The notes: generated by a model not told the origin, from the sequence alone. A DNA stretch of 64,000 nt from Candidatus Bathyarchaeota archaeon (GCA_963707955.1 OY970176.1:640001-704000), one strand, 5' to 3'. Counted from the stretch's first letter, positions 14,665 to 29,751 are shown. Program-made: numbers and translations.

Positions 14665-14753
14665 GCGGGGTTGCCCTAACCTGGTAGGGGGCAGGCCTGC
14701 TAAGTCTGTGGCTGGAAACGGCCGCGTGGGTTCAAATCCCACACCCCGCGCCA
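14665..14753 (+). tRNA. tRNA-Ser(GCT), integration target
   Basis: GCGGGGT/ACCCCGC acceptor stem, anticodon arm CAGGC-CTGCTAA-GTCTG, long variable arm, GTGGG-TTCAAAT-CCCAC T arm, G73, encoded CCA. Confidence 0.95.
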
Positions 14754-14754
14754 A
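14734..14754 (+). repeat. attL core (tRNA 3' end)
   Basis: AAATCCCACACCCCGCGCCAA matches 29285-29305 at 20/21 positions. Confidence 0.9.
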
Positions 14755-14804: not shown

Positions 14805-16136
14805 TTGGGAATCTACCGCTACGAAAGGCGCCTATGGCTCGCCGTTGAAGGACCTGAAGGAATCAAGAAGTCAAAGACGATCATCCCCCAGAACAAGAAG
14901 CTGCTGCTTAATTATGCTGAGTATCTCAAGGCCACCGGAAAGAGCCTTCCACGTCGAGACAAGCTAGTCAGAACCCTGAAGATCTTCGCAACTCTTCTAG
15001 GCCCAATACCCTTCAAACTTGCAACTAAAGAGAACATGATTCAGATCCTGGCGAAAGCTGAAGATCACTGGATGTCCGAGTTAAGCAAGAAGGGCAGACC
15101 TGGACCAGCTTCAGACTACACGCGCAGAGACTTCCAGGAAATAATCAAACAGTTCTACGCATGGCTCTTTGATGTCGAGGATCCACGCCACGAGGGATAT
15201 CCCAAGGTTGTTAGCTGGATACGCTCCAAGGCGCCGAAACAGAAGCTCAAGGCCTCCGATCTACTCACTCCCGCAGAAGTGAAGAAACTAATCAGCGTCA
15301 CACTGGACATGCGGCTCAAGGCTCTGATAGCCGTGTGCTATGAATGCGGTCTAAGGGTTGGCGAGGCTCTTCAGATGCACATAGGAGACGTCGAGTTACA
15401 AGAACAGTGCGGAACACTGACGGTGAGCGGAAAAACAGGACCGCGCGTAGCCTACTCAATCGAATCGTTACCATTGCTCATGCAGTGGTTAGATCAGCAC
15501 CCAACCCGAAACAACCGTGAAGCCTGGCTCTGGACAGATGACACGGAACCCTTAACCTACGATAGGGCCCGCTTCAAACTTCTAGAATGCAAACGAAAGG
15601 CAAACATACACAAAAGAATATTCTTCCATCTTTTCAGACACAGCTCGGCCACTTCTAACGCACAATTAGGCGAGTCCATGCTGCGTAGCATCTACGGCTG
15701 GAGCAAAAACAGCGATGAACCGAGCACCTACGTCCATCTCTCAGGAGAGACAGTTAAGAAAGCCTTACTCGAGAAAGCCGGCCTGAAGCAGAAAGCCCAA
15801 GAGGAGCCGGCAGTCATCATGTGCCCTCGCTGTGGAAATCCTAACCAACCGAACGCAAGTCTATGCATAAAATGCAAGGGTGTCTTGAAAATCCAGGATG
15901 CGGTTTCAATGAGCGGGCTCCTGGAGCAGGTTCAAAGACTGAATGAGAAAATCGAGAGAATGACTCCGGAATTCGCTCGGCATGAAGAACTATTCAGGAT
16001 CATGAAGAAGAAAGGTCTCGTCACAGAGATTAAGGACAAACCGGCTTCAGGGTCGGGCCAACTCTACACACCTTTTCGAATTCGCAGAGATACTAAAGAT
16101 GGAAAGAAGCAAGGTTTCTGCATCACTTTAGGTTAG
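14805..16136 (+). CDS. Tyrosine recombinase/integrase with C-terminal zinc ribbon
   Basis: GLRVGE (R), GKTG (K), HLFRH (HxxR), YGW, YVHL (Y); CPRC...CIKC ribbon and coiled coil. Confidence 0.93.
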   Translation: MGIYRYERRLWLAVEGPEGIKKSKTIIPQNKKLLLNYAEYLKATGKSLPRRDKLVRTLKIFATLLGPIPFKLATKENMIQILAKAEDHWMSELSKKGRPGPASDYTRRDFQEIIKQFYAWLFDVEDPRHEGYPKVVSWIRSKAPKQKLKASDLLTPAEVKKLISVTLDMRLKALIAVCYECGLRVGEALQMHIGDVELQEQCGTLTVSGKTGPRVAYSIESLPLLMQWLDQHPTRNNREAWLWTDDTEPLTYDRARFKLLECKRKANIHKRIFFHLFRHSSATSNAQLGESMLRSIYGWSKNSDEPSTYVHLSGETVKKALLEKAGLKQKAQEEPAVIMCPRCGNPNQPNASLCIKCKGVLKIQDAVSMSGLLEQVQRLNEKIERMTPEFARHEELFRIMKKKGLVTEIKDKPASGSGQLYTPFRIRRDTKDGKKQGFCITLG

Positions 16137-16334
16137 GGCTAAACCCTTGAAACTAGGCCTCTTCTCTTCTATAGGCCTCGTTCTTTGATTCTGCATTCTG
16201 CCACCTTGGCAGATTCGCTGAAAAGAAGACTTCACAGAACCCTTAGGGATAAAACTTATACTATCAAAGACGCCTATTAGCGAGGCAGAATATCTCCAGT
16301 ATTTTCACTGGCCATTGAAAAAGGAGGTTATGGA

Positions 16335-18896
16335 ATGGTCGATTTCAACAAGTTGCTCGGTAAGAAGAAACTGAGCAAAGTCTTGGATCCAATATTGATT
16401 TTCAAGGATCTCGATAAGGAAATTGGCAAGGAGGATCTCAGACTCCCCCAGGCTGCAGTTCTGAAAGACTGGCATGAGAAATGGAGAAGTAAGCGTGATA
16501 TCATTGTGAAACTGCATACAGGTCAAGGGAAGACTCTCATAGGATTGCTCATTCTCCAGTCATCCTTGAATGAAGGGTTTGGACCAGCTCTTTATGTCTG
16601 CCCAAATAAGTATCTCGTGAATCAAACCATCGAACAAGCTCGAGAATTTGGAATTCATACAGTTCAGTTCGCTCCAGACGTAACAAGGCCTCCCCAAACC
16701 TTCCTCAATTCGAACTCTATCTTGGTAACAAACTGCAAGAAACTTTTCAATGGAAAGTCAGTATTTGGAATTGCTGGGTCAGGCAGAGAGCCGATAAGCC
16801 TCGGCGCGATTGTGATGGATGACGCTCACAAGTGTCTTGACATAATTCGCGAGGCATTTTCAGTAACGGTTGATAGAACAGATGCTGATGGAAAACCCAA
16901 TCCGATGTACTCAGAGATTTGGGATTTGTTTAGGGAGTCTCTGGGAAGGCAGGCACCTGGAACCTGTTCAGATATTGAATCTGGCGAACCGAATAGCTTG
17001 ATGGCTGTTCCATTCTGGGCATGGCATAACAAACAAAAAGAAGTGCTGCAGACGCTTCGAACGCATAAAGAAGGAAAAGAACTACTATTCGTCTGGGATC
17101 TACTCAAAAACAGAATCGAACAATCGCTTTGTCTTTTCTCCGGAACGAGGCTTGAAATCGCTCCCCGAATTCTTCCAATTGATCTTGTACCAAGTTTTTC
17201 TCAGGCAAAGAGGCGCATCTTTCTTTCTGCAACGTTGACTGAAGATTCATTCCTAGTGAGAGATCTATTGATAGACCCAGAGAGCGTTTCTGAGCCATTG
17301 TCATCTGGTGACGTCAGCTATTGCGGAGAGCGGTTGATAATCATACCCTCTTTGGTTGATCTAAACCTCAGACGCGAACAGCTGATAAGATGGGTTTCCG
17401 CAATCGCAAGAAAACATGGGAGTTTTGGTGTAGCAGCAATAACCCCCTCCTTTGAGCACGCAAAGCATTGGGAAAAATACGGTGCCAAGGTGACGAATGT
17501 AGAGAATCTTGAGGAGGAAATAAGCAATCTTCAGGGAAGGATCAAGAAAAGGGAAGCTAAGGAAGTAATGATAATCGTAAACGAGTACGACGGCGTGGAC
17601 CTGCCAGACAACACTTGCAGGATTCTGACACTGGATTCTCTTCCGACCTATAGCTCTCTTATCGAAAGATTTGCTCAAGAAATGAGACCGACATCAGGGA
17701 TAATCAGAAGACATCTTGCGCAAAGAGTCGAACAAGGGATGGGTCGAGCGATTCGTGGGAGTAGCGATTGGTGTATAGTAGTCGTTGTTGGAAACAACCT
17801 GACTAATTTCCTGTCCGAGCATTCAAAGAGACAATTCCTCTCGAAGGAAGCCCAGATGCAGATCAAGATAGGAGAGGAACTCGCAAGTGAAATGAAACAA
17901 GAGGGAGCGGAAGTGGGAGTTGTCGAGAGACTCATTAATCAGGTTTTGAACAGGGAACCTGGGTGGAAGGAGTACTACAAGAAAGGAATGTCAGAAATTG
18001 GTGTCGAAACCATAAGCTCTGAAAATCTCAAACGTGCCATTTTGGAAAGAGATGCAGAGACATTCTACATTCAAGGGAATTTCAAAAAGGCAAAAGATAC
18101 AATTCAAGAACTAATCCAAATGTCGGAACAGACCGACAAAGGCTGGTATTTCCAGCTTATGGCTACCTACTTGTTCCCAATAGACAGCACAACCTCCATG
18201 GATATTCAGGTCAAAGCTCACAGCGAAAACAACCGACTTTTCCGCCCTGAAGCTGGGATAACCTACTCTAAGGTGACGGCAACTGGAAGCAACCGCGCTT
18301 CACTTATCCTAAGCTGGATGCGCACGTATGACTCCTACAATGCGCTCTTGATTAATCTTGGGAGTATTCTGGATAGAGTAGCGTTTACGGCACCTTCTGA
18401 GTCTTTCGAAGAAGGGATGAATGAATTAGGCAAAGCTCTTGGATTCTTGACTGATCGACCAGAGAAGGCTTCTGGAAGCGGACCCGACGATCTATGGAAC
18501 ATAGACGGTAAGAGATACTGGATAATCGAATGCAAAAACATGATTTCGTCGCAACGCAAAGAAATCACTAAGAAAGAAGCTGGGCAACTTGGCAATGCTA
18601 TCGGATGGTTCAAAACTAACTACAAGGATTGTGATGGAACCTATGTCTTTGTTCATCCAGCAGATGTGTACGCAAAAGATGCATATCCGCCGGAGCAGAT
18701 ATGGTGTCTAAACCCTCAAGGTCTTGACAAATTGAAGAAGAACGTTATGGCCTTCTATGTTTCCATGCAAAGTACGCCTCTTGCAGATGTCTCCGAAAAT
18801 TTGATTCGCAAAAAGCTGACCGAGTTTAGTCTGGAAACGAGTGTTGTGGCGACATCCTACCTAAAACGTGCAGAAAAGGGTCAGGCTTCAAAATAG
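16335..18896 (+). CDS. SF2 (DinG/XPD-like) helicase fused to C-terminal PD-(D/E)xK nuclease; Hna-like anti-viral candidate
   Basis: Q motif LRLPQ, HTGQGKT, MDDAH, FLSAT, YDGVDLPD, QGMGRAIRG; C-terminal GPDDLW...IIECK; SD AGGAGGT upstream. Confidence 0.75.
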   Translation: MVDFNKLLGKKKLSKVLDPILIFKDLDKEIGKEDLRLPQAAVLKDWHEKWRSKRDIIVKLHTGQGKTLIGLLILQSSLNEGFGPALYVCPNKYLVNQTIEQAREFGIHTVQFAPDVTRPPQTFLNSNSILVTNCKKLFNGKSVFGIAGSGREPISLGAIVMDDAHKCLDIIREAFSVTVDRTDADGKPNPMYSEIWDLFRESLGRQAPGTCSDIESGEPNSLMAVPFWAWHNKQKEVLQTLRTHKEGKELLFVWDLLKNRIEQSLCLFSGTRLEIAPRILPIDLVPSFSQAKRRIFLSATLTEDSFLVRDLLIDPESVSEPLSSGDVSYCGERLIIIPSLVDLNLRREQLIRWVSAIARKHGSFGVAAITPSFEHAKHWEKYGAKVTNVENLEEEISNLQGRIKKREAKEVMIIVNEYDGVDLPDNTCRILTLDSLPTYSSLIERFAQEMRPTSGIIRRHLAQRVEQGMGRAIRGSSDWCIVVVVGNNLTNFLSEHSKRQFLSKEAQMQIKIGEELASEMKQEGAEVGVVERLINQVLNREPGWKEYYKKGMSEIGVETISSENLKRAILERDAETFYIQGNFKKAKDTIQELIQMSEQTDKGWYFQLMATYLFPIDSTTSMDIQVKAHSENNRLFRPEAGITYSKVTATGSNRASLILSWMRTYDSYNALLINLGSILDRVAFTAPSESFEEGMNELGKALGFLTDRPEKASGSGPDDLWNIDGKRYWIIECKNMISSQRKEITKKEAGQLGNAIGWFKTNYKDCDGTYVFVHPADVYAKDAYPPEQIWCLNPQGLDKLKKNVMAFYVSMQSTPLADVSENLIRKKLTEFSLETSVVATSYLKRAEKGQASK

Positions 18897-19140: not shown

Positions 19141-19224
19141 GGAGGGGGTTCCCCAGTGGTCACGGGGGCTCGCTTGTCAACCGAGTGCCGTAGGGCTGCG
19201 CGGGTTCGACTCCCGCCTCCTATT
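19141..19224 (+). ncRNA. Aberrant class-II tRNA-like gene (GTC anticodon position, long variable arm)
   Basis: D arm CCCC-AGTGGTCAC-GGGG, anticodon arm CTCG(C)-TTGTCAA-(C)CGAG, variable arm GCC-GTAG-GGC, T arm GCGGG-TTCGACT-CCCGC; imperfect acceptor stem; TATA-like TTACATAA ~25 nt upstream and T-rich tail. Confidence 0.7.
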
Positions 19225-19760: not shown

Positions 19761-19784
19761 TTCGTTTTCTTTGCATAAAACGAA
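19761..19784. repeat. Island palindrome copy 1
   Basis: TTCGTTTTCT-TTGC-ATAAAACGAA. Confidence 0.8.
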
Positions 19785-19825
19785 AGTAGACTTTAGCTAA
19801 TCTGTGTGCTCTGAGAACCTGCTTT

Positions 19826-19904
19826 CCATGGTGACACCACGGTATCAGTGACCCCCATTCTTCTAGGGGTCCAAACGTGGGCATTGACCCGAGCGACCCC
19901 ACCA
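19826..19904. ncRNA. Unknown structured motif, copy A
   Basis: Hairpins CCATGGT-GAC-ACCACGG and GACCCC-N10-GGGGTC, then CAAACGTGGGC...AGCGACCCCACCA; paralogue at 24912-25005. Confidence 0.5.
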
Positions 19905-20240
19905 ATAGCTTATTATACAGAATAAAGCTAGATCAGCCGACTATTTTTAAGAAGCAACGTCGGACACGGGTTTGTTCCTGAGGGTCGGGTGGCGTTGCCT
20001 TCACAGGTTCATGCAATGCGTTTTTTCGCATCGTGATGCAGCGGATGAAGTTGGCACTATTATCGTCTTAAGTTGTAGACCTGGTTGGTTCTGTCGGAGT
20101 TTGAACGCAGCTTTGTTACCGCATTCTGAATCGTTCTCGCATTATGCCAGAGTACCTCGATCTGATATTGTGCTGCCGATTTCTCAACTGCGGCCATTTT
20201 CGAACGAGGCGTATGAACTCTCGATGTACGCTTATGCCAT

Positions 20241-21176
20241 CTAGGGATTCAGTGTGGGAGTCAGAGACAACTTCAGGTTTCTAAGGAACTCATTTACCTC
20301 CTTGATTAGGCCAGTGCTTGCTAATGAAGGGAGAGACACTATTCCAGTAAGAAAGGAGACAATCTGTATCAAGTCGGCCGCCGTACTGATGGTCTTGTTC
20401 AAATAACGTTTTGCTTCTTTCGCTTTGGTTGAACCCTGTTCTTCCAGTCTTGTTGCGACAGCTGCCACTATTTGTCTGATTTCGTCCTGCCTATTCAATA
20501 TTGTCTTAATCTGTCCTGGAGTCTTGGAAATTTCCGCCAGGATAGCACTCCCCATTTCCTTGATTTCTCTGATGCCTTCTTCTGCTCTCCCTGCGCTTCC
20601 AGCGAGTACCTTCTGTTTTTCAGAGACGTCTTCGATTACGTCTATTATTCTGTCTAGTCTTTCTAATATCAGTAAATCGTTGGCACGAGTCATATTCAAT
20701 AGATGCAATTCACGCTTGGTTTCATTGAAAGATGTCTGTTGCCCAACCAGTACATAGCATTTGCAGCCTGAAATGTCAAATGCATACTTGTCAGTAGATT
20801 TTTCCGAGACAATTCTATCTTCACAATCCATCAGGCTTCGCGACTTATCATCGCTGATGATCTCTCTTTTCAGAAACGTCAGATAGGTGTCCATCTGAAG
20901 TCTTTCTTCTGTGCTGAGATCCTCGAGTTCTCCAAAGTAGATGTTAGCTTCTGTGGCAGATAGCACGCTATGAAGGCCACTTGCGAGATGAACTACAGGC
21001 TTGTTGCGTTTGATTACTGGATCTGACCATATTAGGAAGCAGAAGTCTTGGAACATGCTGAAAACTATCGGCTTGTAACCTGATCTTTGTTTGATCTGGA
21101 TAGGTGCGATAGTTAGTGATTCGTCCACTGCCGATCGAAAGATGAAGTATTGGGTCCCCTTTAAACCGACAACCAC
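20241..21176 (-). CDS. Hypothetical protein with C-terminal coiled coil and hydrophobic helix
   Basis: 311-aa ORF; heptads from LERLDRIIDVIEDV; tail ADLIQIVSFLTGIVSL. Confidence 0.7.
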   Translation of the reverse strand: MVVGLKGTQYFIFRSAVDESLTIAPIQIKQRSGYKPIVFSMFQDFCFLIWSDPVIKRNKPVVHLASGLHSVLSATEANIYFGELEDLSTEERLQMDTYLTFLKREIISDDKSRSLMDCEDRIVSEKSTDKYAFDISGCKCYVLVGQQTSFNETKRELHLLNMTRANDLLILERLDRIIDVIEDVSEKQKVLAGSAGRAEEGIREIKEMGSAILAEISKTPGQIKTILNRQDEIRQIVAAVATRLEEQGSTKAKEAKRYLNKTISTAADLIQIVSFLTGIVSLPSLASTGLIKEVNEFLRNLKLSLTPTLNP

Positions 21177-21205
21177 TTTCTCTGGACTATTCCCAGTTAT
21201 CCAAA

Positions 21206-21886
21206 CTATCTCACGCGATATATTGGTTGCCCCCTCTCGTCTTTTCCGAGTTCTTCAAGATCCAGTGGCGTTTTGTGCAGACCTTCCTGCGCGATTATTC
21301 TGTTCGTCTTCTGCATTGATCTTAACAAATCACAAGCTCTTTGGAGAAGTTTCTTTCCCGCATCTCGAGTTTGTTTGAATGGTGAAAAGAATAGAGACGT
21401 CCCAGTCCTGAGTAGAGATGCTAGTTCACTGAAGACTCTGTGTTCAACAGTTCCCTCAAAATATCTGTTTGTAGCGGTTGTGAACGCATCAGCCAATGCT
21501 TGGAGTCTGGAGTAGGACGGTTGTGTGTCACTTTCTATGGTTCCTACCAGTCCCTCAAAATACTCGTCTGGGTCAACGTTGCCATCAAGAACATGGTTGG
21601 TGGCAGCCACCATCACTTCCTGAATTTGATCGCCAATAGGCTGAAGATCCGCATGCAATATCATGAGGTACATTTTAGCTTTTGGAGTTAAGTTGAATCT
21701 CTCACTGCGTCCCTCGAAGGAAATGTTCGCAAGACCGTAACTGACACACGACTTGAGTATGGCGGACGCAACATTTCGGCTAATACCAGTGCTATTCACG
21801 ACTTCGGTTATGTTCCGAGGCTCTTTCTCGTCGAGCGCACCAAGACATTCAACGAACTCGTCAAGCCATGGTTTTGTTCGACTCAT
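21206..21886 (-). CDS. Winged-HTH protein
   Basis: Start re-placed at ATG 21886 behind SD GGAGGTGA; NITEVVNSTGISRNVASAILKSCVSYGL...FNLTPKA is a wHTH pattern. Confidence 0.7.
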   Translation of the reverse strand: MSRTKPWLDEFVECLGALDEKEPRNITEVVNSTGISRNVASAILKSCVSYGLANISFEGRSERFNLTPKAKMYLMILHADLQPIGDQIQEVMVAATNHVLDGNVDPDEYFEGLVGTIESDTQPSYSRLQALADAFTTATNRYFEGTVEHRVFSELASLLRTGTSLFFSPFKQTRDAGKKLLQRACDLLRSMQKTNRIIAQEGLHKTPLDLEELGKDERGQPIYRVR

Positions 21887-21944
21887 CTGCCATTTCACCT
21901 CCTGATTTGTATTACTTGAACGCAAGCATTCGCAAAGGGCAAAT

Positions 21945-21969
21945 GCAATGCATGCATTGTATGCATTGC
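21945..21969. promoter_or_regulatory. Inverted repeat, candidate operator of the wHTH gene
   Basis: GCAATGCAT-N7-ATGCATTGC just downstream (minus strand) of the AT-rich TATA-like tract at ~21975-21985. Confidence 0.45.
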
Positions 21970-22074
21970 GCCCATAAATATAAATGTTTCCCTCACCCAA
22001 AAGCACAGTATGTTACAATGAGCTACTTCTCACCAATTGCTTCAAGTTGAAGTCTCGCCAGAACCCCAACCCGA

Positions 22075-23604
22075 TTAGTTTTGATAGTAATTGAACGCTA
22101 ATGAGTACAATGCTCCAGGACTGGAAGCGCTTTGGTCTGTTCTTATCAGTTTGCATGCGCTGTCTAATATTTTCCTCGGTTCAGCTTTGACAGTAACCTT
22201 ATTTTGAGAGAGTGTATCCATGGTTTCCGTGTCTGTTGGAAACGATGGGTTTCTTTCTTTTTTGAAGATTCCCCCGAGAATTCGGTCATTATTCTCTGCT
22301 ATTCGAGTCCCAATGTGAAGAGCAGCATTTGAGATGCAGTCCATGCACTGTATGTGTGATTCGTAGATGTCCTCTTCTACTCGTTTATGTTCAAGAAGAT
22401 ACTTCAGTAACGATGTGCTTTCATTTTCGATTTCGGAAAAACAGCTAGCTGCCTCTTCGGCATATTCTCTAGGAAGACTCGACAACTTCTGAATGGAGTT
22501 GTCTGAGTTAGCGTTTACGTAGGCGAGGACAATTGAGATTCTCAAGAGAACACCTGTGAAAAATCTCGAATTCCATCTCAGCCTCTGCGAATCGGGCCGC
22601 ACTCTGGCAACTGCTGGTTCAAATACATAGTCTTTCATAGCTCGAATATATGAGGTGCCTGCAATTCGCAAGGCGATAATATCCATAAGCGATTCGTAGA
22701 GGTGTCTCGTAAAAGGTTTGTTTGTTGCATATTCAACAAAACTCTGTGGGGTTGGGGCGTTCAGAGTATCCTGCCATTTCTTGAAAGGACAGAAACTCAT
22801 GTTTTTGTTGAGTTTGGTATTGCAGCCTCCCATTATTTCCAACAACTTCTGTCGCAGACCAAAGATACATTCGAGTGTATCACTTAGTACAGTCACAGAC
22901 TCTGGAGCGAGCGAGCGTGGTCTTCCAAGCTCATCAAAGCTTGTCTGACATGCTGCGTGCGAGATCTCATGTGCGAGTATTAAAAGTCCCTGAAGATTAT
23001 ATTTAACATCCATAGCAAGATTCAGATGAAAAGTCTTGTGAAGAAGTGTGTACCGGCCCCCCGGAAGTGATTGTTGCAGTTGAAGTTCAGACCAGGAAAC
23101 AAACTTGTCCCATCTCACTCCTGACATGTTCAGGTATGAGAGATAGTTGTTAACTAGTTTATCAGCAGCTACCAAGTAGAGTTCGTTTCCGCAACTTCTT
23201 TCAGGGCTGAATGGAATGCCAGCTATTATGTACGGAAGCTCCACACTATCTGTTCTCTGGAAAAAGCCCGATTTTATGAACGACACGATTCTTGCTATTT
23301 TCTCTATTGCATATTTTGCATCTGCGATGGCGATCATTTTATCGCTGTCGCTTTGTTCAGATTCATTCTCCTCGCTTCCTGCGTATCTTGTAACCTGACT
23401 TGAGAAAAATCTAATCTCGTCATCCAACCCTCCCTGACCAAAAATATCAGGGAGGATATCGCTATTTTCAAATGCCTTGCTGGCGAATTTCCATCGGTCT
23501 TTAAGTGTTAGATATTCACTCAGAAGACCTCTGTACTTGCGGAGAACGTCTCGGAAGACTTCATCAGAGCATGCATATCTGTCAGTCTTTATCAAGGATC
23601 TCAT
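22075..23604 (-). CDS. HEXXH (gluzincin-like) metallopeptidase-domain protein
   Basis: LAHEISHAAC plus downstream YESLMDIIALRIAGTSY (E...D..A....G..Y). Confidence 0.6.
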   Translation of the reverse strand: MRSLIKTDRYACSDEVFRDVLRKYRGLLSEYLTLKDRWKFASKAFENSDILPDIFGQGGLDDEIRFFSSQVTRYAGSEENESEQSDSDKMIAIADAKYAIEKIARIVSFIKSGFFQRTDSVELPYIIAGIPFSPERSCGNELYLVAADKLVNNYLSYLNMSGVRWDKFVSWSELQLQQSLPGGRYTLLHKTFHLNLAMDVKYNLQGLLILAHEISHAACQTSFDELGRPRSLAPESVTVLSDTLECIFGLRQKLLEIMGGCNTKLNKNMSFCPFKKWQDTLNAPTPQSFVEYATNKPFTRHLYESLMDIIALRIAGTSYIRAMKDYVFEPAVARVRPDSQRLRWNSRFFTGVLLRISIVLAYVNANSDNSIQKLSSLPREYAEEAASCFSEIENESTSLLKYLLEHKRVEEDIYESHIQCMDCISNAALHIGTRIAENNDRILGGIFKKERNPSFPTDTETMDTLSQNKVTVKAEPRKILDSACKLIRTDQSASSPGALYSLAFNYYQN

Positions 23605-24451
23605 CCAAAACTATCTGTTTTTCGAACTTCAATACAGTCCCAGTCCAATTGGGTGGTCCCGAAGATCTGAAGTTCTTTCGCATTTGCTTTATTACTTTTA
23701 GCAGGGCTTGTGGCGAGGATCTTTTGGTGTCTCTTGCGAGATCAAAGTATCCAAGCCGATATCTTGTGCCGCGATATCGAATCATTTTTTTAAGTAGCGC
23801 ATTGTCACCAAGCTTTACGTTAATGGTTCCAGAAACAACATCCTTTTTAGGTGCCTCTGTATGCTGATTACATATTATCATGAAAGTGCAAAAATCTCTT
23901 GCAAACTTGGTTCTCGCCCTGACAGCGATAATAGACCTAGATAGAGCGTCATAACTTTCACCCTCGAGTTTCAACAGGTAGGATACAAAACTCGGATTCC
24001 ACATGAAATGATAGCCGATGTTTGGATGCTTCTTCTCTATATGTTTCAGTGCTTCCAGAATGTCTGAGAGGTCGTTATTAGCAATCCTAAAAACCGAATA
24101 CGCTCTATATGGCGGGAGAGATTTCGGCCTTTCTCCTGACCATTTATGGCTTCGCATCGGAAAACAAAGCAGTGATAGAAAGGAGCCTTCGAAAGAACGA
24201 GCCCTGAAGAATTCTTTCCGAATCGTATTTAGTAACTCAAAACCGGCTTCAGGGGACGCAGGTTGGATGTCAAAAACGTAGTCAAATCTTCCAAAGCATA
24301 CGCCAAAAAAGCTGGGCACACTAGAATTCTCTTCTAGGATTCTTAAAATCCTTGACTCCACCATGCGCAAATTCCTAGTGAGAACGAAGGTGACTATTTC
24401 TGGGACTGGCGAGATTAGAAGTTCTTGCGTACCTTCTTGCGCGTTGCTCAA
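23582..24451 (-). CDS. Protein with repeated Lrp/AsnC ligand-binding-like (ferredoxin-fold) units
   Basis: CFGRFDYVFDI and YRLGYFDLA resemble the GxxD motif of AsnC/RAM domains; overlaps the HEXXH gene. Confidence 0.5.
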   Translation of the reverse strand: MSNAQEGTQELLISPVPEIVTFVLTRNLRMVESRILRILEENSSVPSFFGVCFGRFDYVFDIQPASPEAGFELLNTIRKEFFRARSFEGSFLSLLCFPMRSHKWSGERPKSLPPYRAYSVFRIANNDLSDILEALKHIEKKHPNIGYHFMWNPSFVSYLLKLEGESYDALSRSIIAVRARTKFARDFCTFMIICNQHTEAPKKDVVSGTINVKLGDNALLKKMIRYRGTRYRLGYFDLARDTKRSSPQALLKVIKQMRKNFRSSGPPNWTGTVLKFEKQIVLDEILDKD

Positions 24452-24911
24452 GAGACATGCACCATGCCAAAAACTCGAGATAGCTCAGTTCCTCTTACTT
24501 GCGGTTTCTTACAGATCGACGTGGTCTATCAAAATCCCCTCATTCACCTTCATATGAAGGAGAGAAAAACGACTCGCCTATCCGTGGATCCCTTGATTTT
24601 GCCACGAGTCTTGTACGCCTATCCAGCTCACCCTTGGGAGGGGGTAGAGTGACCACATACTCACGGATGCGTTCAAGACGAATTCTTAGTTTGCGATCCA
24701 CGCATAGTCCCACGGCTCCCTTATCCGGTGATACTGTATTATGTCTTGTGAAACCAGAATAATGATTCCTGACCATCTCTAGCACCAAAGAGCTGTTTTC
24801 TTACTAGAAAACTAGCAAGTTAACTTAAAGCTTTCTACGACGCGGTCACCTCGGTCATCTACTCCACAGCCACTGTTCCAGTTCGGGCACCAACACAGCG
24901 CCGATTAATAG

Positions 24912-25005
24912 GATTTTCCGGAACGCGTAACGGAGTAATCTTCAAGGAGCCCTATAGCATAATGAGGGTTCAAACGCGGGCTCTGGACGCCAAGCGACCC
25001 CACCA
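24912..25005. ncRNA. Unknown structured motif, copy B
   Basis: Hairpins GATTTTCCG-N10-CGGAGTAATC and GAGCCCT-N11-AGGGTTC, then AAACGCGGGC...AGCGACCCCACCA. Confidence 0.5.
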
Positions 25006-25035
25006 TAACTACAAAGGTTTTGTCACAGCTACTTC

Positions 25036-25059
25036 TGCGTTTTATGTTTATAAAACGAA
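25036..25059. repeat. Island palindrome copy 2
   Basis: TGCGTTTTAT-GTTT-ATAAAACGAA. Confidence 0.8.
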
Positions 25060-25233
25060 GCTCAACAGGTTGTCCTAGAAAGTCCAAAATGAGAAAAAGT
25101 ACTGAAGAGAATACTTCGAAGTTGTCCTTCAGAATGGTTGATGGGAAGACGCGAAATCTTCAGACCTTTCGCTCTGAAGCTTTCCTGCTTCCTCATGTGC
25201 AAAGTAGCGTTTCCGTTTTCTGACAAGATTAAT

Positions 25234-26292
25234 CTATGACAAGGTTCGTTGTTCCAGAAAACCCAAGACGCGTCCAATGGTTTCACTGTAGGAAAGAGTT
25301 GTCCTCGCACCTGCCGCTCTGGAATTAGGACCTCCGCCTCCGAGGAATTTCGCAAGAGGTCTAACATCGTATGGAGCAAAAAGACATCGAAAAACGACTT
25401 TCCCGTTTTTATAAGCAACATAGAGAGCATGGTCTTTTTCTCGTTCGCATACGTCACTAATGAAATTGATACTTGAAAAATAGAGATTGCAAAACTTGAC
25501 TTTCAACCCGCTTCTGAAAAACACATCATACTTATCCTTGAGGAACTCCTCTATTCTTGAAAGGTCTTCTTGATATTTTTGTAAAGCGAACGATAACTTG
25601 GTATCTTCGTGCAATAGTTTGTTTATGTTGTTTGCCAGACATGCATCAAGAAAAGAGTCATAGGTATATTCAGGGCCTGCTGTAGCAATCGAAGCTCTAA
25701 CAACCTTGGCTAAGGACATTAGCTTTGATGTTATTACGGATTCCAAATCGAATCGGTCAATTAATCCCATTTTCTTTATGAGATCGAACATCTCAAAGCT
25801 ATCTTCTATGCAGTAATCTTGGGCAGCGCCTATTCCTCCCACCCAGCACCTTTGACTAAAAAAGTCGCGGTCGATATTCATGAGGATTTTCCATACTAGA
25901 GCTGAGGAGTTGAGGAAGTCAACATTGTCTAAGTGGGGATTGCAATCAATGAAATTCCTATCATTAATATGGAGAATATCATGGTGATCAAGATTCATTA
26001 TTCTTGTTTCTTTTAAGATATCTGAAAGATAGTTTGTATACTGCTGCAAGGGGCTGTCTACTATAATCAAGTACTTAGGTTGGCGGTCCTTGATGGACTT
26101 TAGAATTTCATAGTATTGACAAAATCTAGATGGATATGAAATCTCTGCACGAACACCATATTTCGATACAAAATAGGCATTCAATAAAACGCTCGCACTG
26201 AACCCGTCGTGGTCAGCATGTGACATTATCATGCAATCACGAGGCGAGATTTCCTGCAAAATAGCAACAACATTTTTGAGATTTTCAGTCAT
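25234..26292 (-). CDS. DHH-family phosphoesterase with DHHA1-like C-terminus
   Basis: SHADHDG, IVDS, LDHH, GGGGP..AAGA motifs. Confidence 0.85.
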   Translation of the reverse strand: MTENLKNVVAILQEISPRDCMIMSHADHDGFSASVLLNAYFVSKYGVRAEISYPSRFCQYYEILKSIKDRQPKYLIIVDSPLQQYTNYLSDILKETRIMNLDHHDILHINDRNFIDCNPHLDNVDFLNSSALVWKILMNIDRDFFSQRCWVGGIGAAQDYCIEDSFEMFDLIKKMGLIDRFDLESVITSKLMSLAKVVRASIATAGPEYTYDSFLDACLANNINKLLHEDTKLSFALQKYQEDLSRIEEFLKDKYDVFFRSGLKVKFCNLYFSSINFISDVCEREKDHALYVAYKNGKVVFRCLFAPYDVRPLAKFLGGGGPNSRAAGARTTLSYSETIGRVLGFLEQRTLS

Positions 26293-26307
26293 AAGACAAG
26301 CCTCGCA

Positions 26308-27993
26308 TTAGAAGGCATCGTCCACACACGCGAAGTTCGATGCACTTACTTGTCGATGCAAACCTAGTCTGGCAACATAAGAATAATGAGCCATTCGTTT
26401 TTCAACTTTAGTCATTAGAACCTCTTTTTTGAATTCGTTGGGATTTCTAATGAGATCAATGATTTCTGGAAGTGTTAAAAAGTATATGTCTTTCTCATGG
26501 ATCAGTTTACTTGAGGTAAATTGCTTGCCTGCTAGAGTGAAGAAAGGTCGAATAATAGACAGGTTACGGATCCAATGGTGATGATGATTATCTCTTTCCT
26601 GAGAAAGTTTCCTAGCTGCATTCAACGTGAACGTAAAGCTTTCATTATCAGAAACACCAAGTTTACCCTCAACAAAATCAACTGTTTGTCCAAACTTAAG
26701 CTTGTTCTCCTTAAGAGATACATGTTCTTTAGTTTCGTGATCAGACTTTCTAATTGCAGAAAGCATACCAATTGCATTCGATATGGGATCGAAATAAGGA
26801 TCTCTTGTCCGTATCCACCACCAATTGTTAGTGTGGTTTTGTAACCGCTCTAGCCAATCGCGACCATCTGGTATTTTGGCAATGCTACCCATTATTGTTC
26901 TTTCATCCTGCGCTGAAAAGATCTGATCCTTGATTTCCTCTGAAGCACTTTCAAGCAGGCGTGACGTTTCGATTGCAAACCTATTAGAAATTACTATCTC
27001 CTTCACGTCAACTGGCCTTAATAGAATGCTCATGCAATCGGCAACAGTTGCATTATCCCTACAAGCCTTTGCTACCAGTTCACGTAGACGCGGACCGACG
27101 ATGTCATCGCCCATTGATTGTATTAGATATGTGTGGGAAAAGAACTCGTTATGTACTGCCCACCAAGAGATAAAATGCTCAACAAGCTCAGGAGAGACTG
27201 CCTGTTCGCTGGTTAATACACTCTCAAATCTTGCGGTCGCCTTGTCGAAGCTTTCGTATACTTCTTGAAGCCGGTGCAGAAACCAACCCCAGTAAAGGCT
27301 ATCATTTTGGATAAATTTCTGAGAAAGTCGCTTAAGTAACCGGCTTGTCGTTTGAAACTCGATACAAACATTTTGGTGATACCTGACATACAGGGGCGAC
27401 AAATCTTCGAAGCCAAGAGCATGGGGAACCCTTTCAATTCCGCCTCCTATCAGAGAGCGCTGAACAAAAGATCCGTATATCTCTGGCCTTGGCGTAATCC
27501 ACTGGTACTCTTTTTCCTTGTCCGGGGCTTTCCAAGCATAATCTATCCGTTCACACAAAGGCAGAGTGAGGAACACTTTCTGTGCAAAAACTGGGACGCT
27601 ATTTCCAAATATCGTAAACCTGGTAAGAGCGTCATTTTTGTTTTCCGTGCTCAAGAGTCCTTCCAAAATATGTACCTGGCCGTTTGTTCCATCTACTTTG
27701 ACCAACATACCATCTTTCAGCAATATCGTAGCATTTTGCGTTCCTGTGACACAGGGAATAGCTCTCTCCCTCGAAATAACAGCCGCATGGCAAGTAAGAC
27801 CACCACTGTCAGTAATGATTGCTGAGCATTTTCCCATAGCAAGGACCATATCGGGATTTGTCATTCGAGCGACAATGATATCTCCCCTTTCAACCTTTTT
27901 CAAGTCAGCATTGCTAAAAACTATTCTTACTCTTCCCTCCGCACTCCCACCACTTGCCGGAATGCCTGTTATGATTTGCGTTGGTTTGCTCAT
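26308..27993 (-). CDS. PEP-utilising phospho-His swivel domain (N-terminal) fused to a helical domain resembling the rifampin phosphotransferase substrate domain
   Basis: GIPASGG.AEGRV, MTNPD, DSGGLTCHAAVISRE, VDGTNG; C-terminal WWWIRTRDPY, ERDNHHH, DIYFLTLPEI. Confidence 0.75.
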   Translation of the reverse strand: MSKPTQIITGIPASGGSAEGRVRIVFSNADLKKVERGDIIVARMTNPDMVLAMGKCSAIITDSGGLTCHAAVISRERAIPCVTGTQNATILLKDGMLVKVDGTNGQVHILEGLLSTENKNDALTRFTIFGNSVPVFAQKVFLTLPLCERIDYAWKAPDKEKEYQWITPRPEIYGSFVQRSLIGGGIERVPHALGFEDLSPLYVRYHQNVCIEFQTTSRLLKRLSQKFIQNDSLYWGWFLHRLQEVYESFDKATARFESVLTSEQAVSPELVEHFISWWAVHNEFFSHTYLIQSMGDDIVGPRLRELVAKACRDNATVADCMSILLRPVDVKEIVISNRFAIETSRLLESASEEIKDQIFSAQDERTIMGSIAKIPDGRDWLERLQNHTNNWWWIRTRDPYFDPISNAIGMLSAIRKSDHETKEHVSLKENKLKFGQTVDFVEGKLGVSDNESFTFTLNAARKLSQERDNHHHHWIRNLSIIRPFFTLAGKQFTSSKLIHEKDIYFLTLPEIIDLIRNPNEFKKEVLMTKVEKRMAHYSYVARLGLHRQVSASNFACVDDAF

Positions 27994-28117
27994 GTGGATG
28001 ATTCCAATTGATCTATTAGTTTATTTGCAAGAAGCTAATATTTGTATTTTGCCTGGTCACTTACGTGAGGCAGATTCTAGGATTAACATATAAGGCACAG
28101 ATAATCCTTCATTATTT

Positions 28118-28861
28118 ATGGCATTTCCAGTGGAGTTTGAAAGCTATGAAGTTTTCAGGATTATTCTACCTGGATATTTAGCATTGGGTGCTATCTTGCT
28201 CTCTTTGTACAGCTTCTCAATTACTCAACCGTTTTTAATTGACTTCTCAATAGCCTTAGGTCCGACTGTATTATTAGCGTCTATGATTGGATTGGGCTTG
28301 TTCCTGGGTCTAGTACTGTATGATTATGATCACCCACGACGCACCGGTTTCTATAAGACTCGTATAAGGACATCTCTGCCTTCCTTGCATTTGAAAAATA
28401 TCCTTTGTGATTCGTGCAATCACAAATGTAGGAATGCAATTGGGGATTCAGATACTGCAAGCTCGACGTATTTCTATTTATTCTACGGCTATTTTGATTC
28501 TAGTTCGCAAAAGACTGCGAATTTCTTTGGATCCATTTATAGAATATTCGCAGACATGCGGGCTATATTTGGATTAATATGGGTAACTCAGCTGTCATTT
28601 GGTCTTTTTGATTTGGTTCCGCTGATTATGAATGGTGCAATTGTGAGTCCTTCTCTCACTGCGGTTAATCTGACACTCTTTGTGGTTTTCCTACCATTGT
28701 GGCTACGTTTACATCCTGAATTCTATTCTAACCGATTGAGCAAAGGTGACCAATATATGCTCAATGCGATTAATTTCCAGAAGAGGTATCTCGATTTGAA
28801 GATTAACGATTTTAGAGGCTTGATATGTCTTCCGCCGACAAACAAGATGGCGGAGTATTAG
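28118..28861 (+). CDS. Multi-pass membrane protein with CxxCxxxC loop
   Basis: About four TM segments; FRIILPGY N-terminus; CDSCNHKC; AT-rich codon usage. Confidence 0.7.
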   Translation: MAFPVEFESYEVFRIILPGYLALGAILLSLYSFSITQPFLIDFSIALGPTVLLASMIGLGLFLGLVLYDYDHPRRTGFYKTRIRTSLPSLHLKNILCDSCNHKCRNAIGDSDTASSTYFYLFYGYFDSSSQKTANFFGSIYRIFADMRAIFGLIWVTQLSFGLFDLVPLIMNGAIVSPSLTAVNLTLFVVFLPLWLRLHPEFYSNRLSKGDQYMLNAINFQKRYLDLKINDFRGLICLPPTNKMAEY

Positions 28862-29036
28862 AGATCTTAACACCACGATATCTCCAGCGTGCGCTAAATG
28901 AGGATTTGTCTTGGTAAGCTATTGATATTGAAGTCTCAAATAGTTCGTAATCCAGCCTTAATCATGTTGCCATCTACACTGGTTTTTACTGCGTGCGCAT
29001 GCGAGAGAACGCTGGTAACGCGCTTTTGATTTGTCT

Positions 29037-29087
29037 TTCGTTTTATTGGAAAAAAACGAAAGCTTCAGTTTCTTCGCATAAAACGAA
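29037..29087. repeat. Island palindrome copies 3 and 4 (tandem)
   Basis: TTCGTTTTAT-TGGA-AAAAAACGAA (29037-29060) and TTCAGTTTCT-TCGC-ATAAAACGAA (29064-29087). Confidence 0.75.
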
Positions 29088-29167
29088 AAGATACCAAGGA
29101 AGTACAGAAAAACAGAACTTGAGAAGAAAAACACGCTTCGCCCCTCTCTCGTTTCTTTTGATTTCTG

Positions 29168-29214
29168 GACAAACATATATGTTTGTCATGTTCGTTTTAT
29201 GTAAATAAAACGAA
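29168..29214. repeat. Perfect 20-bp palindrome plus island palindrome copy 5
   Basis: GACAAACATATATGTTTGTC (29168-29187) and TTCGTTTTAT-GTAA-ATAAAACGAA (29191-29214). Confidence 0.85.
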
Positions 29215-29284
29215 AACGTTATAACTACTTATCGGCGACAAAAATCGTTTTCACAGAAGAAAATCCAGATTTGGAGATTGGACA

Positions 29285-29305
29285 AAATCTCACACCCCGC
29301 GCCAA
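29285..29305 (+). repeat. attR core
   Basis: AAATCTCACACCCCGCGCCAA duplicates the tRNA-Ser 3' end. Confidence 0.9.
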
Positions 29306-29751
29306 TTCCGCGTGTTATTTGAAATCTTTCTTTAGCGCGCTGCCTTGTCGCTTTATTATGCGTGCACACTTGAACAGCCACGTAGCCCCGCATCCAACAT
29401 GAACGGCTTCATCGTTTTCAACGATGCTCGTCGACTGTATATGCAAAATGTATATGCTTTTTGTATATGCTCTTACGTGCGCGCTATTGGCGAATTCAGG
29501 GACAAGCCAGCGCGCGGGCTAAACAGCTAGAAGAGGAAATGCCAGAAGAAGAGGAATGAAAGTGAAAGATTGGGAAAAGCGAACTATTCGCAAATATGCT
29601 AATATGGGAGTCCTTGACCACCGCGTTGACTGTGATTATTTTGTAACGGGAAAGTCTGATATACATTACGGTCATTTCATATTCAGAATTAGCGCGCGCG
29701 ACAACAACCGCGTAGATGAATCAAACAGTGATTTAGGAAAGTGAGAGCATC

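Follow-up and report, generated by a model that had tools for sequence, protein, structure and literature searches.

A previously undescribed family of integrative elements of Bathyarchaeia has as its signature, and as its best-conserved feature, a 24 bp palindrome, here called P24. The palindrome was noticed in a 64,000 nucleotide stretch of the genome of a Candidatus Bathyarchaeota archaeon (GCA_963707955.1 OY970176.1:640001-704000; the whole stretch is referred to as the window, and positions are counted from its first letter unless stated otherwise), in an island that is integrated at a tRNA-Ser gene and bounded by attachment (att) repeats. Module boundaries coincide with P24, and the flanking sequences are re-assorted there. 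We tentatively interpret P24 (probability roughly 0.45) as a protein-binding accessory or operator site that marks the ends of modules. As such it would act in cis as the recognition site of a dimeric DNA-binding protein, and the family would consist of integrative elements that target tRNA genes and encode a tyrosine integrase and, in most cases, a D5-type primase-helicase besides cargo that varies.

P24 sites of the tRNA-Ser island

P24 has the form TTCGTTTTAT-N4-ATAAAACGAA. When the window was scanned with the pattern TTCGTTTTATNNNNATAAAACGAA, allowing up to three mismatches, five sites were found: sites 1 (19761), 2 (25036) and 3 (29037) with one mismatch each, site 4 (29064) with three and site 5 (29191) with none. 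No match occurred in 100 dinucleotide-preserving shuffles of the window. An initial annotation of the window had listed five copies with constant spacing at these places and had described them as intergenic and confined to the island. Both statements proved correct: all five sites lie outside long open reading frames (ORFs) and between the att repeats, and the confinement extends to the whole genome of 2,346,764 bases, where the same five were the only copies at up to three mismatches. In the mismatch spectrum of the genome these sites (0-3 mismatches) were separated by a gap from the remainder, with a single further site at four mismatches and 17 at five.

The arms of P24 are 10 nt long and surround a 4 nt centre (10-4-10). 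The invariant part is CGTTTT-N8-AAAACG, that is, a 6-8-6 core, and variation is found at positions 9-10 and 15-16 and in the penultimate base of the arm. The likeness to dif/pdif sites suggested in the initial annotation was not supported, the layout being 10-4-10 and not 11-6-11, and the best match outside the island having four mismatches, in a comparison for which the dif of the host itself was not identified.

The proposed bracketing of modules by P24 was reproduced. Sites 1 and 2 enclose a block of four minus-strand genes (module A), and sites 2 and 3 enclose the genes of the DHH, PEP-utilizer and membrane proteins (module B). Sites 3-5 are packed in 180 bp. Between the end of site 5 and attR there are 70 bp; sites 1-4 lie 0.1-9.5 kb from attR, a fixed distance from att being a property of site 5 only. 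The order along the island is integrase, PDC-S28 helicase, tRNA-Asp, site 1, module A, site 2, module B, sites 3 and 4, and then, at the right end, about 80 bp, an 18 bp palindrome (P18), CATG, site 5, a TATA-like octamer and attR (Table 1).

P24 in related islands and in metagenomes

Among 60 relatives P24 was found only in G027, a genome of the same family and another genus, which has two copies beside its tRNA-Ser gene. An exact-pattern scan of one genome per species yielded four Bathyarchaeia metagenome-assembled genomes, one weak Methanobacteriota contig and one Haemophilus match, the last of which was taken as chance. In a sample of 400 other genomes of the class, six had a match to P24 at up to two mismatches, and one of the genomes had two sites. 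Because the reversed-pattern control also gave six, P24 is not a common promoter motif in the class genomes, a possibility that the initial annotation had raised.

In G027 and G063, about 150 bp spanning P18, CATG, P24 and the 70 bp arm up to attR are 89-91% identical to the window, and the cargo is unrelated to that of the window. In G062 the island is located at tRNA-His. Its integrase is followed, at the position of PDC-S28 in the window, by a D5-type primase-helicase (phrog_864, 9.4e-93), and its four P24 sites stand in the same order as in the window, with the central tetranucleotides (spacers) TTGC, GTTT and TGGA followed by a P18-linked site that ends 64 bp before a 14 bp tRNA-His repeat. 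Sites 1 and 2 are each identical between the two islands in 24 of 24 positions. Similarity detected by blastn was limited to the P24 sites, their short flanks and 79 bp past the integrase gene (int). By tblastx only the integrases, which are 33% identical over 374 aa, were matched, and no similarity was seen in the cargo, which in G062 includes Schlafen/AlbA_2, HD/dGTPase-like and resolvase-like proteins. With the same order of sites and dissimilar cargo, the cargo boundaries of related islands coincide with P24, as the initial annotation had anticipated. The slot between sites 4 and 5, about 100 bp in the window, has an equivalent of 5.9 kb in G062. The 79 bp segment past the int stop codon is about 90% conserved in G062 although the integrases are so divergent. 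The integrase is the sole protein family common to the window and related islands (ORF cluster 2, 17 loci).

Exact matches to TKCGTTTTAT-N4-ATAAAACGMA were obtained in at least 120 metagenome contigs; all metagenome counts given here are among the matches listed, and the arms are fixed by the search pattern in at least one site per contig. Before counting, 11 loci with the spacer ATAT and constant flanks of their own were set aside (L039, L043, L047, L061, L079, L080, L103, L107, L118, L143 and L149). In five further contigs a CATG-spacer form of the P24 arms was found in GC-rich flanks. Both sets look like unrelated palindromes of other organisms that fit the pattern by chance. Among viral contigs a degenerate P24 pattern gave 17 matches, each a single site with unrelated flanks, and these were likewise taken as chance. 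The census then comprised 114 loci, including five genome islands, with 159 sites. At least one flank recurred in another locus for 128 sites (referred to as family sites), and 31 had two unique flanks. A single network of shared flanks, to which the window belongs, joins 74 loci with 111 sites; 19 loci are isolated.

Re-assortment of flanks at P24

In the listed contigs, recurrent P24 flanks were joined in many combinations exactly at the edges of the palindrome. Flank type F01, the beginning of which forms the right flank of site 4 in the window, was found with six named partners and three singletons, the P18 flank F00 with nine and ten, and F02 with four and four. Modules bounded by P24 thus occur in varied combinations, as was tested by analogy with dif/pdif systems, both in the re-assorted flanks and in the comparison of the window with G062.

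Of the internal ends of blastn high-scoring segment pairs (HSPs), 83 of 887 (9.4%) fell within 15 bp of a P24 centre, where 0.68% was expected, an enrichment of about 14-fold. When at least 90% identity was demanded over no less than 300 bp, 129 distinct abrupt ends remained; 23 of them were within 40 bp of a P24 and 83 were more than 300 bp from any P24. Homology on both sides of P24 was found in the 127 of 893 HSPs that pass through it, showing that P24 is also a stable internal feature of a conserved backbone; none of the 893 was bounded by P24 at both ends. Enrichment of contig ends at P24 (8 observed and 5.5 expected within 150 bp) was not significant and was dropped.

The search for excised circles and inversions advocated in the initial annotation gave a negative answer in the contigs of the four runs (one study) that hold the island: no circle, deletion or inversion joint at P24 was present. 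In the source run a single contig (14682-29446) contains the island and shows no joint at a P24, but rare variants are lost in contigs and stability cannot be deduced from it. The cassette idea of the initial annotation was retained in part: cargo boundaries lie at the sites and flanks are re-assorted at the palindrome, whereas the role of P24 as the point of strand exchange has become doubtful, as discussed below.

The control region near attR

The P18-CATG-P24 arrangement was found at 38 sites. In all four islands with a tRNA repeat that defines their att (the window, G027 and G063 at tRNA-Ser, G062 at tRNA-His) it is followed by 64-70 bp and then attR. The fixed short distance from the att core by which accessory sites can be recognised was thus found for site 5 only, with two tRNA targets. 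A TATA-like octamer begins 0-5 nt after P24 in 26 of the 38 P18-type sites, compared with a background of 2.5% per flank; the octamer of the window, TTATAACT, has three mismatches to TTTATATA and is not counted among the 26. Other family sites had such an octamer on either side in 12 of 90 cases, and TATA adjacency was given up as a general property of P24, being limited to P18-type sites. The palindromy of P18 is kept by compensatory change, the pair 6/13 being G:C in 15 and C:G in 16 of 40 copies, and P18 looks like a second protein-binding site or a hairpin in a divergent control region.

What follows P18-P24-TATA differs between loci. In six (the window, G027, G063, G062, L066 and L136) it is an arm and a tRNA-type att core, which in L066 and L136 is of the tRNA-Ser type. 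The alternative, and the commonest arrangement in the contigs, is a leader of about 480 nt and the genes of a ~100 aa CxxC/HxxxxH protein and a ~160 aa coiled-coil protein. The former is encoded at L097:8280-8579, L133:7691-8002 and ten other loci; neither protein had a significant Pfam or PHROG family, and the ~100 aa protein is a candidate zinc-finger-type regulator. On the P18 side a divergent gene without assigned function (cluster 1) is present in 18 loci, only as fragments in G062 and G027, and not in the window. Its product had no Pfam or PHROG family, no Atlas match and one weak match in 401 class genomes.

In the interpretation that we favour, P24 would probably not be a strand-exchange point but an accessory or regulatory site at module ends, used in two settings. 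The first would be the composite control region P18-CATG-P24-TATA, which in integrated islands stands 64-70 bp from attR. After excision its putative promoter would read across attP into int, and in other members of the family it would drive an early operon. The candidate regulators in complete relatives are the ~100 aa protein encoded immediately downstream of the putative P24 promoter, the product of cluster 1 and a PadR-like winged helix-turn-helix (wHTH) protein. Integrase arm-type sites and operators of the wHTH protein of the island had been mentioned as alternatives in the initial annotation. An arm or accessory site, or an operator, fits the P18-P24-TATA context at least as well as a recombination site, but the wHTH protein of the island is unlikely to be the family-wide binder because it is not conserved in the family.

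The perfect or near-perfect palindromy of P24, which lies in non-coding DNA, would also suit a hairpin in RNA or single-stranded DNA, acting for example as a bidirectional terminator, a transcript-end stabiliser or an insulator between modules. The composite P18+P24 region folds better than all of 200 shuffles (z = -4.1), and in a crude ORF call P24 half-sites faced gene ends (103) more often than gene starts (81), the contexts being mixed and not decisive (32 end/start, 15 end/end and 11 start/start). Single P24 hairpins, however, are weak (-5.8 to -8 kcal/mol, z -1.9 to -2.6), the sequence after P24 is A-rich and not T-rich, and the P24 sites of the window lie 175-540 nt past the nearest gene ends, which does not agree with intrinsic terminators. 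Moreover, changes at the variable positions 9/10 and 15/16 are uncompensated (TTCGTTTTCT occurs with ATAAAACGAA, and TTCGTTTTAC with CTAAAACGAA), indicating that it is the sequence that is conserved and not the pairing. A hairpin function is considered very improbable.

The gene content of the window points to a further explanation. The backbone of the family (cluster 1, cluster 3 and the ~100 aa and ~160 aa ORFs) is absent from the window, and G062 and G027 have mere fragments of backbone genes. The copies in the window could thus be functionless relics, inherited with pieces of complete members that have lost the regulator or recombinase genes. The degeneracy of site 4 and the recovery of the island as one stable contig without variant joints (as judged from contigs only) would agree with this. 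Four of the five copies, on the other hand, have at most one mismatch, and no difference in sites 1 and 2 separates the window from an island with an integrase of only 33% identity, which speaks for constraint or very recent exchange. We regard loss of function as an improbable explanation of the window copies.

att-like sequences near P24

The second setting in which P24 would function is at the borders of accessory modules, where relics of tRNA-type att cores often lie 30-100 bp away. In the window, a 40 nt motif resembling a tRNA 3' end, GGGTyCAAACGyGGGC...AGCGACCCCACCA, is directly repeated around the four-gene block, close to sites 1 and 2 on their inner sides. A tRNA-like gene at about 550.5 kb of the genome (C1; L159:239-362, minus strand), not called by ARAGORN, ends in the same sequence as the 3' part of the motif, CCA included, and in copy 1 the match extends about 11 nt into the downstream flank of that gene. 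On account of these matches the motif is probably an att relic of another tRNA-targeting integrative element. The motif also occurs at genome position 716792, in G061 and beside P24 in metagenome contigs. The possibility that sites 1-4 are what is left of the right ends of tandemly arranged copies of one element was rejected in this simple form, these sites being without P18, the arm and the tRNA-Ser core.

Similar arrangements were found in the metagenome loci. The recurrent flanks other than P18 are short adapters, in which homology typically stops 65-100 bp from P24 (about 83-93 bp in F01, 65-75 bp in F02, 90-100 bp in F08 and 92 bp in F09), either at tRNA-3'-half-like sequences or at a 14 bp palindrome followed by such halves. 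In 15 contigs of this kind ARAGORN did not call any complete tRNA. Of the 128 family sites, 22 had a strictly defined att-like feature within 160 nt, compared with 1.9% of random places. The 14 bp palindrome, GGGAGA-CA-TCTCCC, was seen in metagenome loci and not in the window; it stands 58 nt from P24, contig homology ends there, and varied tRNA-3'-half-like sequences follow (for example in L068, L132, L049 and L062; flanks F02 and F04). It may be the real att core for part of the family.

The island of the window would, in our interpretation, be a decayed, cargo-loaded member of the family that was assembled by serial integrations of the integrase type, as in tycheposons, and also by recombination at the short conserved P24 sequences or next to them. 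The five copies would punctuate the modules because of these two processes. Of the elements of this interpretation, the specificity of the sites, their conservation and positions and the re-assortment of flanks are observed, whereas binding by a protein, activity as a promoter and the mode of exchange are inferred.

Accessory site or crossover site

Several observations weigh against an accessory or operator site. In 855 pairs of half-sites sharing one flank only, identity over the first 12 nt was 0.90 on the shared side and 0.40 on the other, the low identity starting at the first bases beyond the arm. The central 4 nt of P24 stay with one arm: flanks at ...CGCA arms keep one spacer whatever the partner (F06 in 8/8, F09 in 5/5 and F04 in 7/9 cases), whereas flanks at ...CGAA arms (F01, F03, F12 and F08) have 3-6 different spacers each. 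In the 27 loci with at least two sites, none of 49 within-locus pairs had the same spacer in either orientation, where permutation predicted 3.96 (P ~0.012, an optimistic value, as related contigs are not independent). P18-type sites have 21 different spacers among 38. To this must be added that 78 of the 90 family sites not of the P18 type are without an adjacent TATA-like octamer, that the only family protein of the window island is the integrase, in which Pfam recognised no arm-binding domain, and that the family-wide candidate binders (the cluster 1 protein, the ~100 aa CxxC/HxxxxH protein and the PadR-like wHTH protein) are absent from the window.

The sharp homology edge, the spacer kept by one arm and the lack of same-spacer pairs would be more natural if exchange took place at a fixed point in P24. 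It is quite possible, though in our view less likely than an accessory or operator site, that P24 is a crossover (core-type) site for a site-specific recombinase and that the modules it bounds are captured, lost and swapped. The enzyme could be the island integrase acting on a second class of sites, that of a helper element or a host enzyme. Tyrosine-recombinase core sites usually consist of inverted arms on either side of a short centre. The combination of a shared site order, identical sites 1 and 2, divergent integrases and unrelated cargo in the window and G062 also favours crossover, as do the almost empty slot of the window opposite 5.9 kb in G062, the many partners of F01 and F00 and the excess of homology ends near P24 centres. 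In a more specific form, P24 copies would be heterospecific sites of a natural archaeal cassette-exchange system, each slot having its own tetranucleotide and strands being exchanged at a fixed point between the spacer and one arm; such slot-specific tetranucleotides would bar deletion within an element and permit exchange between the same slots of different elements. This form appears rather unlikely.

Other results argue against crossover at P24. No second recombinase was found in the window island (Pfam, PADLOC), and ten scanned proteins of the fuller G061 element included no site-specific recombinase, only a transposase of the insertion sequence (IS) DDE type and a methylase. The att of the integrase, a 21 bp tRNA repeat, has no likeness to P24. 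Most strict breakpoints are distant from P24, no HSP has P24 at both ends, the statistical support from the spacers is optimistic for the reason given above, and the conservation of the arms in metagenomes is partly imposed by the search pattern. Our doubt about a dif-like crossover has four grounds: the att of the integrase is tRNA-like; the chromosome has no look-alike of P24; most breakpoints are elsewhere, many of them at att-like relics tens of bases away; and the best-conserved setting of P24 is a control region of two palindromes and a TATA-like octamer at a fixed distance from attR. A model in which the modules are transposons, with P24 halves as terminal repeats and the spacers as target-site duplications, was rejected, the left and right spacers being different (TTGC/GTTT and GTTT/TGGA).

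Other features of the island

The features of the island are listed in Table 1. A tyrosine integrase beside a tRNA gene and flanking partial tRNA repeats are present, as are variable cargo and internal partial tRNAs or remnants; the replication module is the D5-type primase-helicase in G062, and in the window its position is taken by the defence-candidate helicase. Pfam recognised only the catalytic domain and the zinc ribbon in the integrase of the window. No Xis-like gene was recognised in the island, in which small ORFs were not exhaustively covered. A tRNA-Asp(GTC) at 19141-19224 scored 29.5 bits in Rfam, the gathering score being 29, and may represent cargo, a copy in decay or a further tRNA related to att. 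Just to the right of attR (29342-29515), the contigs break off in each of the four runs, with an approximate doubling of the summed depth; several different sequences continue from there, this being a repeat common to other genomes of those samples.

Table 1. Features of the tRNA-Ser island (positions in the window)
Feature	Position	Strand	Remarks
tRNA-Ser(GCT), integration target	14665..14753	+	ARAGORN; Rfam tRNA 54.4 bits; 3' end = attL
attL, 21 bp att repeat	14734..14754	+	direct repeat D2
Tyrosine integrase with C-terminal CxxC...CxxC zinc ribbon	14805..16136	+	Pfam Phage_integrase 1.2e-18; phrog_1
Non-coding 79 bp segment after int stop	16137..16215	+	blastn 89.9% over 79 bp to the G062 tRNA-His island
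Candidate defence helicase PDC-S28, cargo	16335..18896	+	PADLOC PDC-S28 9.5e-288
P24 site 1	19761..19784	no strand	spacer TTGC; ~30 bp of left flank conserved in G062, L045, L152
tRNA-3'-end-like 40 nt motif, copy 1	19867..19904	+	probable att relic, 82 nt right of site 1
Cargo module A, four genes	20241..24451	-	no significant Pfam or PADLOC family; not found in related loci
tRNA-3'-end-like 40 nt motif, copy 2	24966..25005	+	probable att relic, 30 nt left of site 2; direct orientation with copy 1
P24 site 2	25036..25059	no strand	spacer GTTT; 24/24 identical to G062 site 2; both flanks unrelated
Cargo module B	25234..28861	mixed	DHH-like protein (-), PEP-utilizer swivel-domain protein (-), membrane protein (+); Pfam
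P24 site 3	29037..29060	no strand	spacer TGGA, same as G062 site 3
P24 site 4	29064..29087	no strand	degenerate (3 mismatches), 3 bp past site 3
P18, 18 bp palindrome ACAAAsATATATsTTTGT	29169..29186	no strand	4 nt left of site 5
P24 site 5	29191..29214	no strand	perfect copy; belongs to conserved right end P18-CATG-P24
TATA-like octamer	29219..29226	+	4 nt past site 5, reads towards attR
attR, 21 bp att repeat	29285..29305	+	20/21 identical to attL

Comparison with known systems

The literature covered contained no description of the P24 palindrome or of the element family; relevant maps of elements could be present in supplementary files. In integrons, an IntI-type integrase is encoded next to attI, the attC sites are long imperfect palindromes, and the cassettes are mostly promoterless and co-oriented. 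The island of the window differs from an attC array in having its integrase at a tRNA att, near-perfect 24 bp palindromes and multi-gene cargo on both strands. Dispersed operators are known from prophages, namely the conserved inverted repeats of phiC31, the stoperators of mycobacteriophage L5 and the C1 operators of P1, and in these systems the repressor gene is known and located in the element. P24 resembles them in the many copies of a short site in non-coding DNA, some by promoters and others between transcription units, but the candidate regulator genes of the family are missing from the window island. Sulfolobus conjugative plasmids, as far as the available descriptions go, also have short conserved intergenic motifs at the borders of rearrangements in archaeal elements; they belong to another phylum and element type, and the motif is a different one.

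According to the available text of the source, dif sites, those of archaea included, consist of two 11 nt inverted arms and a 6 nt spacer (PMC8371274). The pdif sites of Acinetobacter plasmids are described in the available text of three reports as bounding accessory modules (PMC13141974, PMC6449649, PMC9947245). Going by these descriptions, P24 is similar to pdif in that short sites with inverted repeats bound modules, combinations vary between replicons and an element has several sites. In contrast, pdif copies the chromosomal dif of the host (11-6-11) and uses host XerC/D, whereas P24 is 10-4-10, has no chromosomal look-alike and is found in a tRNA-integrated island with its own integrase. 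Tycheposons, in the text available to us (10.1101/2020.12.28.424599), share with the present elements an integrase by a tRNA gene, a replication module (as in G062) with cargo, partial tRNAs or remnants inside, and cargo that varies between related islands. No conserved palindrome at module ends is described in that text, while P24 and P18 are the most conserved parts here.

Bathyarchaeia are abundant uncultured archaea of sediments, and their mobile elements are barely charted. P24 is a simple sequence handle by which the family can be found in metagenomes, and it marks points of exchange of cargo, much of which is defence-like (PDC-S28, Schlafen/AlbA_2, HD/dGTPase-like). If the P24 sites are crossover sites, they would represent an archaeal counterpart of the cassette systems of integrons or pdif, and if they are heterospecific, defence and accessory modules would be swappable between elements with different integrases and tRNA targets. 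If they are operators or arm sites, P24 would mark out the control region of integrative elements that form a new family.

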